NCBI GenBank assembly: GCA_041746255.1
Contig: JBGTHM010000028.1
Coordinates: forward strand, 1-43,553
Source: Fibrobacteria bacterium
Lineage (GTDB): Bacteria > Fibrobacterota > Fibrobacteria > UBA11236
Direction: 5' to 3'
DNA: 43,553 nucleotides
A program made the position numbers. The first letter of the stretch is position 1, and each line of letters opens with the position of its first letter. Positions 1 through 6,000 of the stretch are shown here, piece after piece.

Positions 1-3000
1 AGGAAGTTCAGGGCGAGGCCCGAGGCCTTGAGAACCCTGAAGGCGTGGCTGGAGGCCACGTCGATGGGTTTGAAAGGTCGAGAACGACGCCCTGGACTTT
101 CGTAGCCGGCCGTAGTAGAACCCCATTCTGTTAGGCACTCTAAGGCGCACCTTCCAGGTCAATGCCGTAATAGCCTCCCAATCGGCCAATGGCGTCCTGC
201 GTATGTTTCGCGCTTAAAAGGGGATCGATTATATCCCTCTGCAAGTCAGGCACGAAGCTGGCGATGATTTCAGAATTTCCTTCGCACCTATCCTGTAAAA
301 CCACTTTTCCACAACTGGCGGGTAAAAGTACGGTTTGCCCCAACTCGATTTCCATGGTTGGTGCCGCATGCGAAAAAAGCGAGAAGCAACCCTTGACGCA
401 GGTCAACACGGTGAAGCGCTCCCGCTCAGGCAGGTGCACCGGACCCTTGCAATCCCGGTATTTCACCAACGCGAAATAGGGACAGGCCACTAAATAATCC
501 TCCCGATGGCTTTTAGCCATAACGGATAAAGGTTCGATTTTATGGCGGTCGTGCGAGGTAAAATCCAGTATTTGCGCGGCTTCCTTTACATGCAATTGAC
601 GCGGCCTGCCCTCATCGTCCAGCCTATCCCAATCATAGAGTCGAAAGGTGGTATCGGAATTTTGCTGGACTTCGTAAATCAGAATTCCAGGGGTGATGGC
701 ATGTACGGTTCCCGCGGGAATGAAAACCAAATCGCCCGGTTTGACGGGTACCTTTCGTAACAGACTTCCGCAGTCCTTACCCTTGAGGGTTTCCAATATG
801 GCAGCGCGGTCGTCTCCCGGTTGCAAGCCGAGAATCAGCTCGGCCCCCGGGGGAGCATCCACAATATACCAGCACTCGGTTTTGGCATCGCCTAAGGGGC
901 TGTTCTTGCCGGGGTGAACCTGCACGGAGAGGTTCTGGTCGGCATAGATGAATTTATACAGGAGGGGGAACCTGTCTCCTGCGCCGGAAGCCTGGCTTCC
1001 CAAAATATCGATACGGTGTCTTTGGTACAGGTTATGAAAATTTTCCCCGTCGAACATCCCCCCCGACACCGTGGTCTCACAACCCGCATAATCAGAAAGC
1101 TCCCAGGATTCCCCTAGGCGGGTGTTCGAGGCGTCCCCTTTACCCAAAAGGCGGAAAAGGCCATCGCCGCCCCAAATTTTCGCTTGCAGCAAAGGACGGA
1201 ATTTCAGGGGCTCAATGAGCAAGGGTTTACGGACCATAAAGACTCCTTGCCGATAAGGATAAAATATTACCGGATAGGAGGCGAATGTTGGATTAGGACA
1301 GGTGGTGGGTTTTTCCGTTCAGTTGATGCTCATCGGTGGTGATGAAGCTGGATTCACTGGCCCCGGGGTTTAAAAAGAGACCTTTGGGTTGCAGCACCTT
1401 CTCGGTAAATTCCTCGAAAGTGGGAAAAATTTTGTTGTTGAAAATAATATTGAAGCCGATGGTGGCGAAAAGGTATTGGATATAATCCGATGTGGAGACG
1501 ATATAGATGTCTCCGCCTTTTTCCTGCACCTTTTTCATATTGTAAATCAGGGCCCCGATTCCACCGGAACACAGGAAATTCACATCGTCCAAGTTGAATA
1601 CGATATGCTGGCATCCGGCGTCTATGGCCTTCAGGATTTCCCGGTCTAAAACGCGGGAGTTTTCCCAACCGATTTTTCCTTTGATGAGGAAGAGGGCGAT
1701 ATCGGCATTGCTGTTGATGCGAATTTCCATGGCGTTCTCCAGGCTTTAAGCATCCTCAGTATAGGGGATGGATCGCCTGTCTTCAAGCCATTTATCCAGC
1801 TTGGAAAAAGTCAATTTCTCCGTTTCGTCCCTTAATTCGCCCGCCGCCCCCGGAAGCTTGCCGGTTATGGCTTTGGCTTGGGCGAAGCCGTCGGCAATGG
1901 CGTTGCGGATTTTCCGTACGAAAGCCTCGGCGTCCTCCCCATGCGAAGCTGCGAATGAGGTCGCAAAATTGACGATACGATTGGCTGTATTTTCGGCGTT
2001 CCAATAGTCGGGAAGCCCCGGAATTGTTGGGGTATTTCCGACTTTTTCACCTTTAAGCAGAGTTTCGTTCGCTTTACCGGTCAAATCCCCCAACCGTTCC
2101 AGGGTTTCGGCAATGTCTTTAAGGCCTTGCTGGAATTGGGGGTCTTTGGATTTTCGCATTCCGGCTTCCAGCAGTCGGAGTTGCTGTTCCTCCAATTGCC
2201 GGCGGGCCATTTCCGCCCACTCCCGGATTTCTTCTCTCGATTTGTCGTTATCGGGTCGGATAGAGCCCCCAGACCGCAATTCCAGCACATCTCCGTCCCG
2301 GCTTTTTACACCGGAGGAATTCGGAGATTCGACCTGGGGGTGGGAGTTTTTTTCACCCGTTTTCGCAGGGCGACCTTTAGGCATTTGGGTTTCAGCTTGG
2401 ACTATGCCTGGTGCGGGAGAAATGGGCTGTATCATGGGCGATATCCTTTACAAGAACGCATAGTATTGAATCGGTAAAGTTCGCGTGGAACTTGAGGTAA
2501 TTCTTACAGCGAAGGGCGGTAAATAGGGGATTTAGGGAGGAAAATTTTTTGATGCTACCATCCCGTCCAGGTTCGGTCAAGCGGTAAAATCGTAATTCGA
2601 AAGATTTTTGTGAATAGCTTGTGGATAAGGGGTTTACTGAAACGGCATAAGGGTGCGAAAAGAAATCTCTGAGAAATTGTTGAGATTTCCTTTGCCGGGG
2701 CCCACAAGTTCTATTAAATATTTCTCTACTTAATGAAGATTCTCCAACCGATGCAAAACTTTCGAAATAGTGTGGCGACATGGAGTTACGTCCTCGCACA
2801 ATTCAAGTGCTTCACGGTTGTTACAAACTCTTGCGGCGAAAGTCGTTAACCGACCTGATGGAAAGGATGCTATGGTGGGAGAACGGATGTTGACGGATGC
2901 ACGCGAAAAGTCGATTTGGCCGGAGTGCCTGAGTGATCTCAGCTCCAAGGTTTCCGAGTCCGCTCTAAATACCTGGTTTTCGGCACTGGAATTGATCGAC

Positions 3001-6000
3001 TTCAATGGTTCTGAAATGATCATCAGTGTTCCGAACACTTTCGTCCTGGAATATGTGGCCCACCATTATAAGCGCAGCATTGAGGCCTCCGCCGAATCCG
3101 TCCTGGGACACCCTGTATCGGTAAGCTTTCAGGTCGGCGCCCGCCAAGGTTCGGGATTCGAGGAGGAAATGGGTTTCCCGGTCCTTCCCGAAATCGTTTA
3201 CCACGAGGTCGCCGAACCTCCGCGCGAAAAGGTCGATGTCAATGTCACGGTTCCCCTCAACGTCAAATCCACTTTCGAAAACTTCGTGGTGGGGGATTGT
3301 AACCGCCTCGCGCATGCCGCTTGCATGGCGGTGGCCGAATCGCCCCGTCAGAATAATTTCAATCCCCTGGTGATATATGGCGGAACCGGAATGGGCAAGA
3401 CCCACCTTCTGCAAGCCATCGTGCATTTTTGCGTTGAAAATGAAACCGCCCGGAAAATCGTCTATCGGACTTCCGAGGAGTTTACCCGGGAATATATCGA
3501 GTTCGTGCAGAAAAGCCGCGACTCGCGCACCTTCTACCGGGTCTATAAAGACGCCGACGTTCTGATCATCGACGATATCCAATTCCTGGCGGGAAAACAA
3601 AGCACCCAGGACGAGTTCTTTAATATTTTCAGCATCCTACAATCGATGAATAAGCAAATCGTCATCACCTCGGATCGCCCCCCTGCTGAGATCAAGGGGC
3701 TTCATTCTCGCCTCCTTTCCCGCTTTGATACCGGCCTACTGGCCGATTTGACTCCGCCCAATCTGGAAACCCGCCTGGCCATCCTCCGCAAGAAAAACGA
3801 AGAAGACGGATGCTCCTTCATTACCGACGACGTTCTCAGCTATGTGGCCAACCAGGTAACTTCCAATGTCCGTGAACTGGAAGGCACGCTCATCAAGCTT
3901 TCCGCCTTTGCCGGCTTCACCCATATGCCTATCACCGTGGATATCGCCAAGCAGATTTTCGGGGACACCTTACGAAATGCCAACCGGCCCGTCTCCATCA
4001 AGCGCATCATCGAAAGGGTAGCCGGTGAATATTCCTTGTCCGTCTCCCTGCTGACCTCGCAAACCCGCAAGAAAAACGTGGCCGAACCCCGGCAAATAGC
4101 CATGTATCTGGCCCGTCAACTTACCGACAACTCGCTGCATACCATCGGCCTCGCCTTCGGTCGCGATTACTCGACAGTCATCCACAGTATCAAGAAAGTC
4201 GAGCAGGCCATGATACATGAAGCTTCCCTCAAGGGGCAAATCGACCGTTTGGCCGAGTCCATCTCCATGTAAACACTTTTTTCGATCCGAAGCCTTCTCT
4301 TCCGGATTCCTAACAAAACGAAATACTTACCGCCCCCGACTTGTCCCTTACGCTCAAGTTTCTATTTTGAGGCCCGCATTGGTTCCATTTCTATTCGGCT
4401 AATTCCAACGAAACCCTAGCGAAACGAGCCTTATGTTCGGTGAATTACCCCTATTATCCATCCTGGTCAAATCGGGCATCAGCAGCTGGGCCGTCGTCTT
4501 CATTCTGATGTGCCTCTCCGTGGGGGTTTGGGCGGTCATGCTCCTCAAATGGGTGGGTAATCGTAAAAAAGAAGCCTCCTTCCGACGTTGGCTTGATTTG
4601 ATGGGCGGAAGCGCCTCCTTCCAAGACTTGCTGAAACTTTCCAAGACCATGCCCAACAGTCAAATGGCGCGCATTTCCCAATCGGCGCTTGACGAGATGC
4701 AGACGCTTTCCGCCCAGGTTTCGCGCGACACGCTCGATTTTCGCGGACAATTGATTTCCGAGTCGATTGAGCGTGCTGTGGATGTGGAGAAACAGCGAAA
4801 CGACCATTATCTGGTGTATCTGGCCTTTTGCAGCGCCACGGCTCCGGTCCTGGGACTTCTGGGTACTATTTGGGGCATTATGAATGCCTTCTATGCCATC
4901 GGCCAACAGGGTTCGGCCAGTTTGACCGTGGTCGCTCCCGGTATCGCCGAAGCGCTGGTCACCACACTTGTTGGTCTCCTGGTCGCGATTCCGGCGTCCA
5001 TCGGTTACAACGTTTTCGTAGCCTTCAACCGCAAAGCGGAGGCCATCATGTATCGCTTCGGCTCCGAATTGGTAAGCCTGTTCAAACGAGGCGATTTGAC
5101 CGTCATGGAACGTGGAAGCCGTCCGGTTACGAAAGATTATGCGCCGTAGAACCTCTCTCCCGCTTTCCGCCGAGCTGAACCTCACCAACCTGATTGATGT
5201 GGTGTTCGCCATTTTGGTGGTATTCATGATAACCGCGCCGCTCATGAGCCAGGGCGTCAAAGTGGATTTGCCGGAAGCGAAGGCATCGTCACTGGACGAA
5301 CAGAAATCCATCCATGTCACCATTACCAAGGGCCGGGAAATCCTCATAGATGAAATGCCTTCGGATCCCATGGGTTTCGAAAAGGATTTCCGTCAGGTGT
5401 GGACGGGTGACCAGGAAACCGCCATCGTTATCAACGCGGACCAAGGGGTGCCGTATGGTTTCATTATGGAAGTGGTAGCGGCAATTCATCGGCAAGGCGG
5501 TAAACGCATCGGATTCTTGACCGACCCGGAGGGTAGGCGACGGCCCACCGACTTATAGCCCATGGATCCCCGGCATGCATCGGTTTTCCGGACGGCGCAT
5601 CTCAATGCGGACAAAACCCCTGAAGAAGGGGGAAGGCCGCGTGTTGGGGTTCTCTATTCCATTTTGGCGCATTTGCTCCTGATCGTCGTTTTGGGCGGTT
5701 TGAGTTGGATACTACAGCAAAGGCGGCCGGAAACCGTCAAGGTTTTTGAGCTCGTGGTATTGGAAGAGCCCAAGTTAAGGCCGATGCGTCCCAAGGTGAA
5801 GCCGCCCCCCGAACCTCCGCCCAAACCCGACGAGCCCGTAAGGCCGAAGGATCCGCCTAAGTTGACGCCGACGCCGGAGAAGCCGCCCCAAAAAAGGCCG
5901 GAGCCCAAGGTCGTACGCGAGCCGGACACCACCCGAAAACAGGTGGATATGACTCCGGTATACGAAGAATCGCAACCCAAGGTGGAATTGCAAAATGTGG

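Follow-up and report, generated by a model that had tools for sequence, protein, structure and literature searches.

Most bacteria carry a single DnaA, and few bacterial residues vary as little as those with which it builds filaments and reads DnaA boxes. In the parts of the survey by Schneider et al. 2011 (PMC3080875) drawn on here, 95% of 1,067 genomes have a single dnaA copy, and one Fibrobacter genome is merely counted as two-copy. The window, a stretch of 43,553 nucleotides (contig C28) from a Fibrobacteria bacterium, carries one of two dnaA genes. How old is this pair, and what does each member do? The source genome is a 130-contig draft of 4.59 Mb with an estimated contamination of 1.29%.

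Two complete DnaA proteins in one genome

A PF00308 profile search of the source genome returned exactly two matches, C28:3256-3744 (+) in the window and C18:38361-38852 (-). We refer to the window protein as c1 and to the protein on C18, a complete DnaA of 446 aa, as c2. Both contain all three domains (DnaA_N, Bac_DnaA, and Bac_DnaA_C; Pfam), both score above the TIGR00362 cut-off of 343.9 bits (c1, 477.9; c2, 487.1), and they are 37% identical over 458 aa, in agreement with the preliminary description of this DNA, which had reported two complete copies. It had also stated that neither lies next to dnaN; indeed, the sole dnaN match (PF00712) in the genome, at C112:18316-18672, adjoins neither copy.

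The c1 reading frame spans 2770-4272 (+) and is open from a GTG at 2770; the called gene lies inside it (Table 1), and translation could alternatively begin at an in-frame ATG at 2872. We mapped c1 residues onto E. coli DnaA by alignment and read c1's own numbers from the c1/c2 alignment. In its own numbering, Walker A is G165-T172 (with Lys171), the box VII Arg is Arg275, and the Arg finger is Arg279. In E. coli numbering, window c1 has Walker A Lys178, Walker B Asp235, Arg281, Arg285, Arg334, and Arg399. The position of the AID-1 residue Arg227 is occupied by Lys, and among the box-reading residues Arg399 is kept and His434 is replaced by Tyr428.

The top Atlas match of P0305, the gene divergent from c1, was a DUF5610 cluster commonest in Fibrobacterota, and a P0305 homolog adjoins c1 in 11 of 25 other genomes, from 9 families (tblastn). 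The first two genes of the downstream Tol-Pal-type cluster occupy the position 3' of c1 in no families other than f1, f5, and f6 (4/25 loci).

Table 1. Positions of c1, its domains, and surrounding features in the window
Feature	Position	Strand	Basis or remark
Divergent gene P0305, 229 aa, DUF5610-like	1746..2435	-	DUF5610 26.1 bits, under cut-off of 26.4
Intergenic region between divergent genes; presumed c1 promoter region	2436..2886	.	ORF map, sequence
Second box-like 9-mer, 2 mismatches	2609..2617	-	11 bp upstream of perfect box; read from sequence; weak alone
Perfect DnaA box TTATCCACA	2620..2628	-	267 bp upstream of c1 ATG
dnaA paralogue c1 (P0001)	2887..4272	+	461 aa; ORF map
c1 DnaA_N (domain I), residues 9-69	2911..3093	+	PF11638, 54.7 bits; Trp6- and Phe46-equivalents present
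c1 AAA+ domain (Bac_DnaA), residues 124-286	3256..3744	+	PF00308, 194.4 bits
c1 Bac_DnaA_C, DnaA box-binding helix-turn-helix, residues 371-438	3997..4200	+	PF08299, 90.4 bits
Codon of c1 Tyr428 (E. coli His434 position, recognition helix residue 1)	4168..4170	+	GRDYSTV vs GRDHTTV/GRDHSTV
Tol-Pal-type cluster: MotA/ExbB, ExbD, TonB_C, PD40 propeller, OmpA-family, TPR	4433..9046	+	Pfam; downstream of c1

Distribution and age of the pair

The two-copy state had been described as phylum-wide, and a larger sample bears this out. At a threshold of E<=1e-20, 124 of 151 Fibrobacterota genomes (the source genome included) had two PF00308 matches, 25 had one, 2 had none, and none had three; each of the 18 families contained at least one two-copy genome. 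The same count in a neighboring FCB phylum gave a single DnaA in 58 of 61 genomes. Among the 27 Fibrobacterota genomes without two matches, 14 have a full c1 without c2 and 6 have c2 alone. Single-copy genomes are likely assembly gaps, because their genus mates carry both copies. Both copies sit on the single contig in all five closed genomes, consistent with what had been reported earlier: they lie at 676,118 and 3,282,287 of 3,754,783 bp in one closed relative, about 1.15 Mb apart round the circle, and at 567,634 and 725,082 in another, 157 kb apart.

We then compared one c1 and one c2 from each of 26 genomes, which together represent all 18 sampled families. The 26 c1 and 26 c2 sequences formed one clade each (SH-aLRT 100 and 98, respectively; IQ-TREE, LG+C20 PMSF), and both clades were recovered in a FastTree analysis with 134 outside representatives. 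The family grouping in the c1 clade is broadly mirrored in the c2 clade, and both fall among FCB-type DnaAs, next to those of Marinimicrobia and Bacteroidota. Stem lengths were 0.40 for c1 and 0.14 for c2. In an AU test on two trees (IQ-TREE, LG+F+G4), c1 and c2 as a single clade had the higher likelihood and was not rejected. The best 120 matches to c2 in a homolog search included no outgroup; all were at least 48% identical, and all named organisms were Fibrobacterota. The two clades, with one copy of each per genome in 26 genomes, support the earlier claim that the duplication is older than the radiation of the phylum, and we demonstrate here both the pair and its age. The best explanation is that a single event at or before the Fibrobacterota root gave rise to the pair, and that both copies were kept in nearly every lineage under purifying selection.

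Residues, boxes, and the replication origin

According to the parts of the Katayama 2017 review (PMC5742627) used here, the DnaA helix 434-451 recognizes TnCACA, Arg285 acts as the Arg finger, Arg281 stabilizes DnaA oligomers and is required for DnaB loading, and Arg227 marks the AID-1 motif. We counted these residues in 26 c1, 26 c2, and 112 outside DnaA representatives. His434 is present in 26/26 c2 and 111/112 outside proteins; Tyr replaces it in 22/26 c1 and in none of the c2 or outside proteins, and the 14 bearers of Tyr434 among 150 representatives all belong to the c1 clade. Arg281 is found in 26/26 c2, 109/112 outside proteins, and 7/26 c1, and Arg227 in 17/26, 107/112, and 5/26, respectively. 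The Arg285 finger is invariant in c2 (26/26) and outside (112/112), and 22/26 c1 have it (it is absent in G064, G086, G104, and G134). Other measures favor c1: Phe46, which contacts DnaB/DiaA, occurs in 21/26 c1 versus 12/26 c2, with domain I better kept in c1, and the sensor-2 Arg334 is present in 26/26 versus 23/26. Fibrobacteraceae aside, mean pairwise identities of 42.0% and 42.6% for the two clades indicate the same pace. Fibrobacteraceae c1 proteins score under the TIGR00362 cut-off (300.7, 324.5, and 300.8 bits; c2, 456.1 and 420), and c1 of the closed Fibrobacter-type genome (G086) lacks Arg281, Arg285, and Arg399. The c1 residue pattern, Tyr434 with losses at Arg281, Arg227, and Arg285, is new here.

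The regions upstream of the two genes also differ. With at most one mismatch to TTATCCACA allowed, the 500 bp upstream of c1 held 32 boxes in 18/26 loci, the majority in one orientation at -177 to -231, versus 5 boxes in 5/26 loci upstream of c2. The perfect box in the window has the orientation seen in c1 orthologs and lies just outside their range. Perfect boxes number 23 in the 4.59-Mb source genome, about chance (rough estimate, 35), and the canonical box background in other intergenic DNA is 0.13-0.29 per kb. A sigma-70 scan of 2300-4500 found no promoter on the + strand. Tandem arrangements of any box types occur at 7/26 c1 loci and 0/26 c2 loci; in G025 and G002, a canonical box and the variant TT[AT]TCAACA lie 14 bp apart. 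We rejected the 14-bp tandem as a phylum-wide feature, given that only 7/26 c1 loci have tandems and the window pair is spaced 11 bp. No link between residue 434 and upstream box type was found for c1; c1 proteins that keep His434 are preceded by the canonical box in G007 and by TTATCAACA in G004 and G010.

The preliminary description had left open where oriC lies and which copy initiates. The position can now be given for five closed genomes, where oriC, as located by parS sites, GC skew, and clustered boxes, lies 0.5-1.8 Mb away from each dnaA gene; the initiating copy we still infer, as we do the binding targets of c1. Each genome has one parS cluster, the skew of G086 shows a single minimum and a single maximum, and there is a single replication origin in these five single-contig genomes. 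Canonical boxes reach 7.4 per kb in the candidate oriC regions, against the background given above. The variant box reaches 3.0 per kb versus 0-0.06 in other intergenic DNA, although this is a small count (6 in 2,023 bp) from regions picked partly for their boxes, and the candidate origin of G104 contains 5 canonical boxes and none of the variant.

In the source genome, no cluster of at least 4 boxes (at most one mismatch) within 600 bp was found. Synteny with G044 pointed to C100:86-87 kb, which we dropped because there is no skew change there, and C3:38-350, with 3 boxes, looks coding. The segment C38:12300-12700, 12 kb from parS, is only a candidate for its oriC. The numbering of the closed Fibrobacter-type genome begins at the degenerate paralogue, within a terminus-proximal stretch of the chromosome. 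The main text of the Suen 2011 genome paper mentions neither dnaA nor replication nor GC skew. A search for oriC in these genomes should look to the parS cluster and the minimum of the skew rather than to the surroundings of dnaA.

Roles of the two copies

Judging from sequence, we favor, at a probability of roughly 55%, a reading in which c2 initiates replication and c1 acts as a specialized DnaA-box-binding partner or regulator. With all the near-invariant residues of bacterial DnaA retained, c2 would most likely open oriC and load the helicase. The c1 protein would still be an ATP-binding, DnaA-box-type DNA-binding protein, with a recognition helix that begins with Tyr, not His434, and most c1 lineages have lost at least one arginine for ATP-DnaA filaments (Arg227 or Arg281, and in some the Arg285 finger). 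Its gene, unlike that of c2, is preceded by conserved DnaA boxes. It may serve as an initiation regulator, a transcription factor, or both, itself under DnaA-box control, and may also sit on some oriC boxes.

Because window c1 retains Walker A and B, Arg281, Arg285, Arg334, and Arg399, it could be an active initiator. We counted against the favored reading the equal pace of the clades outside Fibrobacteraceae, the better-kept domain I and Arg334 of c1, upstream boxes as expected of an autoregulated initiator gene, the absence of c2 from more assemblies (14) than c1 (6), and the independence of upstream box type from c1 residue 434. The box layout, the Phe46 and Arg334 counts, and the missing c2 copies would also suit c1 as the working initiator with c2 as accessory. 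We nevertheless consider that arrangement quite improbable, since c1 deviates at Arg285, Arg281, His434, and Arg227, each nearly or fully constant outside, its stem is the longer, and in closed G086 it lacks Arg281, Arg285, and Arg399 and falls below the equivalog cut-off. Alternatively, both paralogues might be obligatory co-initiators that form mixed oriC complexes, one reading TTATCCACA and the other TT[AT]TCAACA. Retention of both copies across the phylum, enrichment of both box types at candidate origins, the 14-bp pairs in G025 and G002 together with tandems at c1 loci but not c2 loci, and a Tyr/His difference at the first position of the helix responsible for reading the box 3' half are all compatible with this. 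It is unlikely, though, in view of the few variant boxes in regions selected partly by boxes, their absence from the G104 origin, the lack of covariation of residue 434 with box type upstream of c1, and the loss of the Arg finger in 4/26 c1, which argues against a filament-forming role there.

A draft assembly with some estimated contamination might suggest that the second copy is a contaminant, a recent horizontal transfer, a redundant copy of recent date, or a protein that initiates at a second replicon or origin. We found no support for this, and the closed genomes and trees refute it: both copies share the single contig in 5/5 closed genomes, each clade broadly repeats the other's family grouping, the copies are only 37% identical, and both clades lie among FCB-type DnaAs. 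The single skew minimum and maximum of G086 and the one parS cluster per genome likewise leave it next to no credence. A broader scheme, which we regard as doubtful, would be a two-protein DnaA system dating from the phylum's origin, in which a canonical c2 and a Tyr434 c1 bind different box variants (TTATCCACA and TT[AT]TCAACA) interleaved at oriC and the c1 promoter, with initiation and feedback split and the genes far from the origin.

Because DnaA is normally single-copy with highly constant residues, the Fibrobacterota, which are free-living and partly culturable, amount to a natural experiment in which two diverged DnaAs have been together since the phylum's origin. It is exactly the filament and box-reading residues that c1 has relaxed, and its recognition helix opens with a changed residue. 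If c2 initiates and c1 is its partner or regulator, the pair offers a view of how a regulator can emerge from an initiator or be divided off from it.

Compared with the canonical single-copy DnaA of E. coli (TIGR00362), window c1 has the same three-domain build, scores above the equivalog cut-off, and shares Walker A and B, the box VII Arg, the Arg finger, the sensor-2 Arg, and the minor-groove Arg399. It differs in having Tyr for His434 and Lys for Arg227, and in being one of two paralogues, distant from oriC and dnaN. Autoregulation of dnaA via DnaA boxes in its promoter is widespread, and oriented boxes upstream of c1 in 18/26 genomes, that of the window among them, resemble it; here, however, the boxes stand at only one of two paralogue genes, and either of the two proteins may be the regulator.

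More than one full-length DnaA per lineage is likewise found in the Chlamydiae (DnaA1, DnaA3, and others) and in the two-copy genera of Schneider et al. 2011; in the parts of the literature used here (PMC3080875; PMC4989314), the roles of those copies are likewise unresolved. The two Fibrobacterota copies score 202.7 and 243.9 bits against the chlamydial-type profile NF009087 (PRK12422), below its cut-off of 657, and so do not belong to that type. In contrast to the chlamydial paralogues, the Fibrobacterota clades lie among FCB-type DnaAs, and the tree test does not reject one duplication on the Fibrobacterota lineage. The role proposed for c1 is similar to that of Hda/HdaA, a DnaA-derived AAA+ modulator of initiation. 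Against the Hda profile TIGR03420, the two copies score 97.3 and 106.7 bits, below the cut-off of 194.8. Hda lacks domains I and IV, whereas c1 has both.

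Two DnaA proteins throughout the Fibrobacterota

The 4.59-Mb, 130-contig genome has exactly two matches to PF00308, one in the window gene for the DnaA paralogue that we call c1 (P0001, 461 amino acids [aa]) and the other on contig C18 in the gene for its counterpart, c2 (P0002, 446 aa). Both proteins contain the DnaA_N, Bac_DnaA, and Bac_DnaA_C domains, score above the TIGR00362 cutoff of 343.9 bits (c1, 477.9; c2, 487.1), and are 37% identical to each other over 458 aa, reproducing all of the figures with which the preliminary description had reported two complete DnaA proteins. 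As also stated there, neither gene adjoins dnaN, for which there is a single match in the genome, on C112.

The claim that two copies occur across the phylum held in a larger sample. At a threshold of E ≤ 1e-20, two PF00308 matches were found in 124 of 151 Fibrobacterota genomes (this one included); 25 genomes had a single match, 2 lacked any, no genome had three, and each of the 18 sampled families had at least one two-match genome. When 61 genomes of Marinimicrobia, the phylum of genome G151, were searched in this way, 58 had a single match, 1 had two (G171), and 2 had none. Because that phylum is mostly single-copy, we conclude that two copies are a trait of the Fibrobacterota and not a method artifact. 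One Marinimicrobia assembly has two DnaA loci on two contigs (L199 and L200), each 57% identical to the query; outside the Fibrobacterota, such extra copies may reflect sporadic duplication or a mixture of strains.

The 27 Fibrobacterota genomes without two matches were searched again with the full-length model, and the matches were typed as c1 or c2. A full c1 alone was present in 14 (completeness 99% in G037; 98% in G053 and G062; 96% in G059, G073, and G111), c2 alone in 6 (98% in G144; 97% in G139), c1 fragments or a broken c1 alone in 3 (G115, G121, and G141), traces of two copies in 3 (G122, G138, and G149), and neither in 1 (G131). In the genera of the one-copy genomes, the other members sampled carry two copies, and we interpret the missing copies as gaps in assembly or binning, an account that does not cover the 14-to-6 imbalance; the DNA around c2 may assemble or bin poorly.

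That two copies in Fibrobacter were noted in print in 2011 is borne out by the listing in Schneider et al. (PMC3080875), who counted dnaA in 1,067 genomes; it places one Fibrobacter genome among twelve two-copy genera and gives no more than the count. The Fibrobacter genome paper of Suen (2011) does not mention dnaA, and our searches of the open full-text literature, with subscription journals outside their scope, yielded nothing further on the Fibrobacter dnaA pair or origin. For the dnaA paralogues of chlamydiae, the roles are likewise unsettled, as passages of PMC4989314 show.

Age and divergence of the two copies

Both copies were taken from 26 genomes, comprising this one and 25 others with at least one per family, and every genome supplied one c1-like and one c2-like protein. 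An outside set was drawn from the 150 best representatives in a c1 scan of 1.84 billion proteins, of which the 134 with 400 to 540 aa were kept. When these were analyzed together with E. coli DnaA in FastTree, all 26 c1 rows grouped with 19 representatives (support 99) and all 26 c2 rows with 3 (support 90). IQ-TREE (quick search, LG+C20+F+G4 PMSF) was run on 96 rows, namely 52 Fibrobacterota sequences, 27 near and 16 far representatives hand-picked from the FastTree tree, and E. coli; it recovered c1 and c2 each as a single clade (SH-aLRT 100 and 98). The two clades with one copy per genome described earlier are thus found in 26 genomes from 18 families. In the IQ-TREE tree, both clades join the near representatives, which include Eisenibacter elegans (Bacteroidota) and a cluster from Marinimicrobia, in one unresolved group with a support of 94. 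A search constrained to unite c1 and c2 reached a higher PMSF likelihood than the unconstrained search (-66116.85 versus -66147.33), and when the two were compared as fixed trees under LG+F+G4, the one from the constrained search was ahead by 14.8 log units (p-AU 0.717 versus 0.283). The data are therefore compatible with one duplication on the Fibrobacterota stem, the trees being rooted on E. coli alone and the joint stem being very short (0.012). We consider it close to certain that the two genes form a genuine chromosomal pair, old and present across the phylum. Given the closed genomes and the trees, contamination, recent transfer, redundancy, and a second replicon can be excluded as explanations.

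In the Fibrobacteraceae, family f3 of our sample, c1 has evolved much more quickly than c2. Its end branches there (loci L113, L012, and L010) measure 1.3 to 2.1, compared with 0.38 to 0.40 for c2, and the position of these c1 rows beside family f10 is probably a misplacement through long-branch attraction. Mean identity over 325 genome pairs was 38.8% for c1 and 42.0% for c2, or 42.0% and 42.6% without the Fibrobacteraceae; these similar values indicate long-term constraint on both copies.

Residues were counted in an alignment with E. coli DnaA (K-12 record), whose numbering we follow. At every residue examined, c2 resembles an ordinary initiator. In c1, the first residue of the recognition helix has changed to one absent from the outside DnaA proteins sampled, and all 14 representatives with Tyr434 lie inside the c1 clade. 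Arginines for ATP-dependent filaments and helicase loading have been lost from c1 repeatedly: Arg285 is gone in G064, G086, G104, and G134, and c1 of G086 (a closed, Fibrobacter-type genome) is without Arg281, Arg285, and Arg399 and scores 300.7 bits against TIGR00362, below the cutoff, versus 456.1 for its c2. The window c1 has Lys227, Arg281, Arg285, Arg334, Arg399, and Tyr434, the last being residue 428 of the protein itself.

Residues of c1, c2, and 112 outside representatives, with roles as described in passages of Katayama 2017 (PMC5742627)
Residue	c1	c2	Outside	Role
His434	His 4/26, Tyr 22/26	26/26	111/112	Helix 434-451 enters major groove, contacts TnCACA part of box
Arg281	7/26	26/26	109/112	Oligomer stabilization; required for DnaB loading
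Arg285	22/26	26/26	112/112	Arginine finger
Arg227	5/26	17/26	107/112	AID-1 contact
Arg334	26/26	23/26	112/112	
Arg399	24/26	26/26	99/112	TTA contact in minor groove
Phe46	21/26	12/26	84/112	DnaB and DiaA binding

Candidate origins and DnaA boxes

The location of oriC had been left open. Candidates can now be placed in five closed relatives, and for the window genome itself we have a candidate gap only. In G086, GC skew (sampled in 40 stretches of 20 kb) was negative from 0.285 to 2.2 Mb and positive from 2.28 Mb across the record start to 0.21 Mb. The sign change, at about 2,199 to 2,203 kb, lies beside a box-bearing gap of 320 bp with 27% GC, and all three rRNA operons are oriented co-directionally with replication from near 2.2 Mb. 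Evidence of these kinds, taken together, also located the origins of the other four genomes. The candidate regions of G104, G064, G086, and G044 lie 2 to 17 kb from parS clusters, adjoin neither dnaA nor dnaN, and mix canonical DnaA boxes (TTATCCACA) with a variant, TT[AT]TCAACA. Computed from the dnaA positions, the shortest dnaA-to-oriC distance in the five genomes is 519 kb, and the separation of dnaN from the origin ranges from 74 kb to 1.09 Mb. The c1 and c2 genes of G086 stand either side of the skew maximum (0.21 to 0.285 Mb); the numbering of that record begins at the degenerate c1, 1.64 Mb from the parS/skew origin.

Coordinates of features in the window, elsewhere in its genome, and in closed relatives
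Feature	Location	Strand	Details
Phosphomannose-isomerase-like gene	window 140-1237	-	upstream of c1
STAS-domain gene	window 1293-1730	-	upstream of c1
DUF5610-like gene	window 1746-2435	-	229 aa; divergent, adjoins c1
Two-mismatch 9-mer	11 bp before perfect box		
Perfect box	window 2620-2628	-	-267 relative to c1
c1 gene	window 2887-4272	+	within ORF 2770-4272
c1 alternative start	window 2872	+	in-frame ATG
Tol-Pal-type cluster	window 4433-9046	+	directly downstream of c1
c2 gene	C18	-	TTG start; PF00308 match 38361-38852
dnaN match	C112:18316-18672		
parS sites	C38:87, C38:127, C112:1		
AT-rich box-bearing gap	C38:12300-12700		inverted TTTTCAACA/TGTTGAAAA pair
G086 c1 (L012, G086:C1:1-2976)	172-1476		degenerate
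G086 L007	G086:C1:445187-449485		listed with L012 for dnaA genes
G086 rRNA operons	2,234,414; 2,827,944; 1,232,471	+; +; -	
G086 parS sites	2,205,404-2,210,125		five
G086 candidate oriC (L093)	2,201,136-2,201,455		c1 at 1,642 kb, c2 at 1,755 kb
G044 candidate oriC (L096)	1,274,608-1,275,191		c1 at 599 kb, c2 at 1,747 kb
G064 candidate oriC (L099)	1,423,119-1,423,505		five boxes; c1 at 962 kb, c2 at 632 kb
G042 candidate oriC	about 1,281-1,283 kb		c1 at 714 kb, c2 at 557 kb
G104 candidate oriC (L102)	1,300,856-1,301,016		five boxes in 160 bp, at sign change; c1 at 787 kb, c2 at 519 kb

Pooled over the five candidates (2,023 bp), canonical boxes occur at 7.4 per kb and the variant at 3.0 per kb, against 0.13 to 0.29 and 0 to 0.06 per kb in other intergenic DNA, and the 7-mer TCAACAT was counted 8 times where 0.29 would be expected; we treat this mixture as no more than a lead, since the numbers are low and canonical boxes were part of the grounds for choosing the regions. 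In the window genome, the parS sites all lie at two contig ends, so an assembly break in the parS region is probable; dnaN is 18 kb from parS on C112. The gap on C38 is a candidate origin only and may form part of oriC.

The c1 gene itself is probably under DnaA-box control. Canonical boxes (at most one mismatch) within 500 bp upstream number 32 in 18 of 26 c1 loci, for most in a single orientation at -177 to -231, and 5 in 5 of 26 c2 loci, the background in other intergenic DNA of three genomes being 0.13 to 0.29 per kb. Exact matches to the variant, nearly all TTATCAACA, number 21 upstream of c1 genes and 2 upstream of c2 genes, and a tandem box pair with 14-bp spacing occurs at 7/26 c1 loci and 0/26 c2 loci. 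Across the upstream regions of c1 loci, box type showed no correspondence with residue 434 of c1.

Genomic neighbors and possible roles

The DUF5610-like gene recurs beside c1 at 11 of the 25 other loci, in nine families. It scores at the DUF5610 threshold, and the closest Atlas cluster, itself DUF5610, is commonest in Fibrobacterota; the gene is a possible functional partner of c1. The Tol-Pal-type cluster (MotA/ExbB, ExbD, TonB_C, PD40 propeller, OmpA family, and TPR) follows c1 in families f1, f5, and f6 only, and a gene for a 201-aa membrane protein upstream of c2 recurs in f1, f2, f3, and f6. The STAS-domain gene occupies the same place in both of the other sampled f1 genomes.

The ordinary residues of c2, together with the helix change, arginine losses, and box control of c1, favor a division of labor in which c2 would initiate replication and c1 would serve as a specialized DnaA-box-binding regulator or accessory factor, a reading to which we assign a probability of about 0.55 on these sequence features. 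The intact catalytic set of the window c1 and the better preservation of domain I in c1 than in c2 would also suit two other arrangements. Obligatory co-initiation, with box preference split between the proteins, seems unlikely to us, and the reverse assignment, with c1 as the initiator and c2 as the accessory, is more doubtful still. A c2 initiator accompanied by a regulatory or accessory c1 is the assignment that we prefer.
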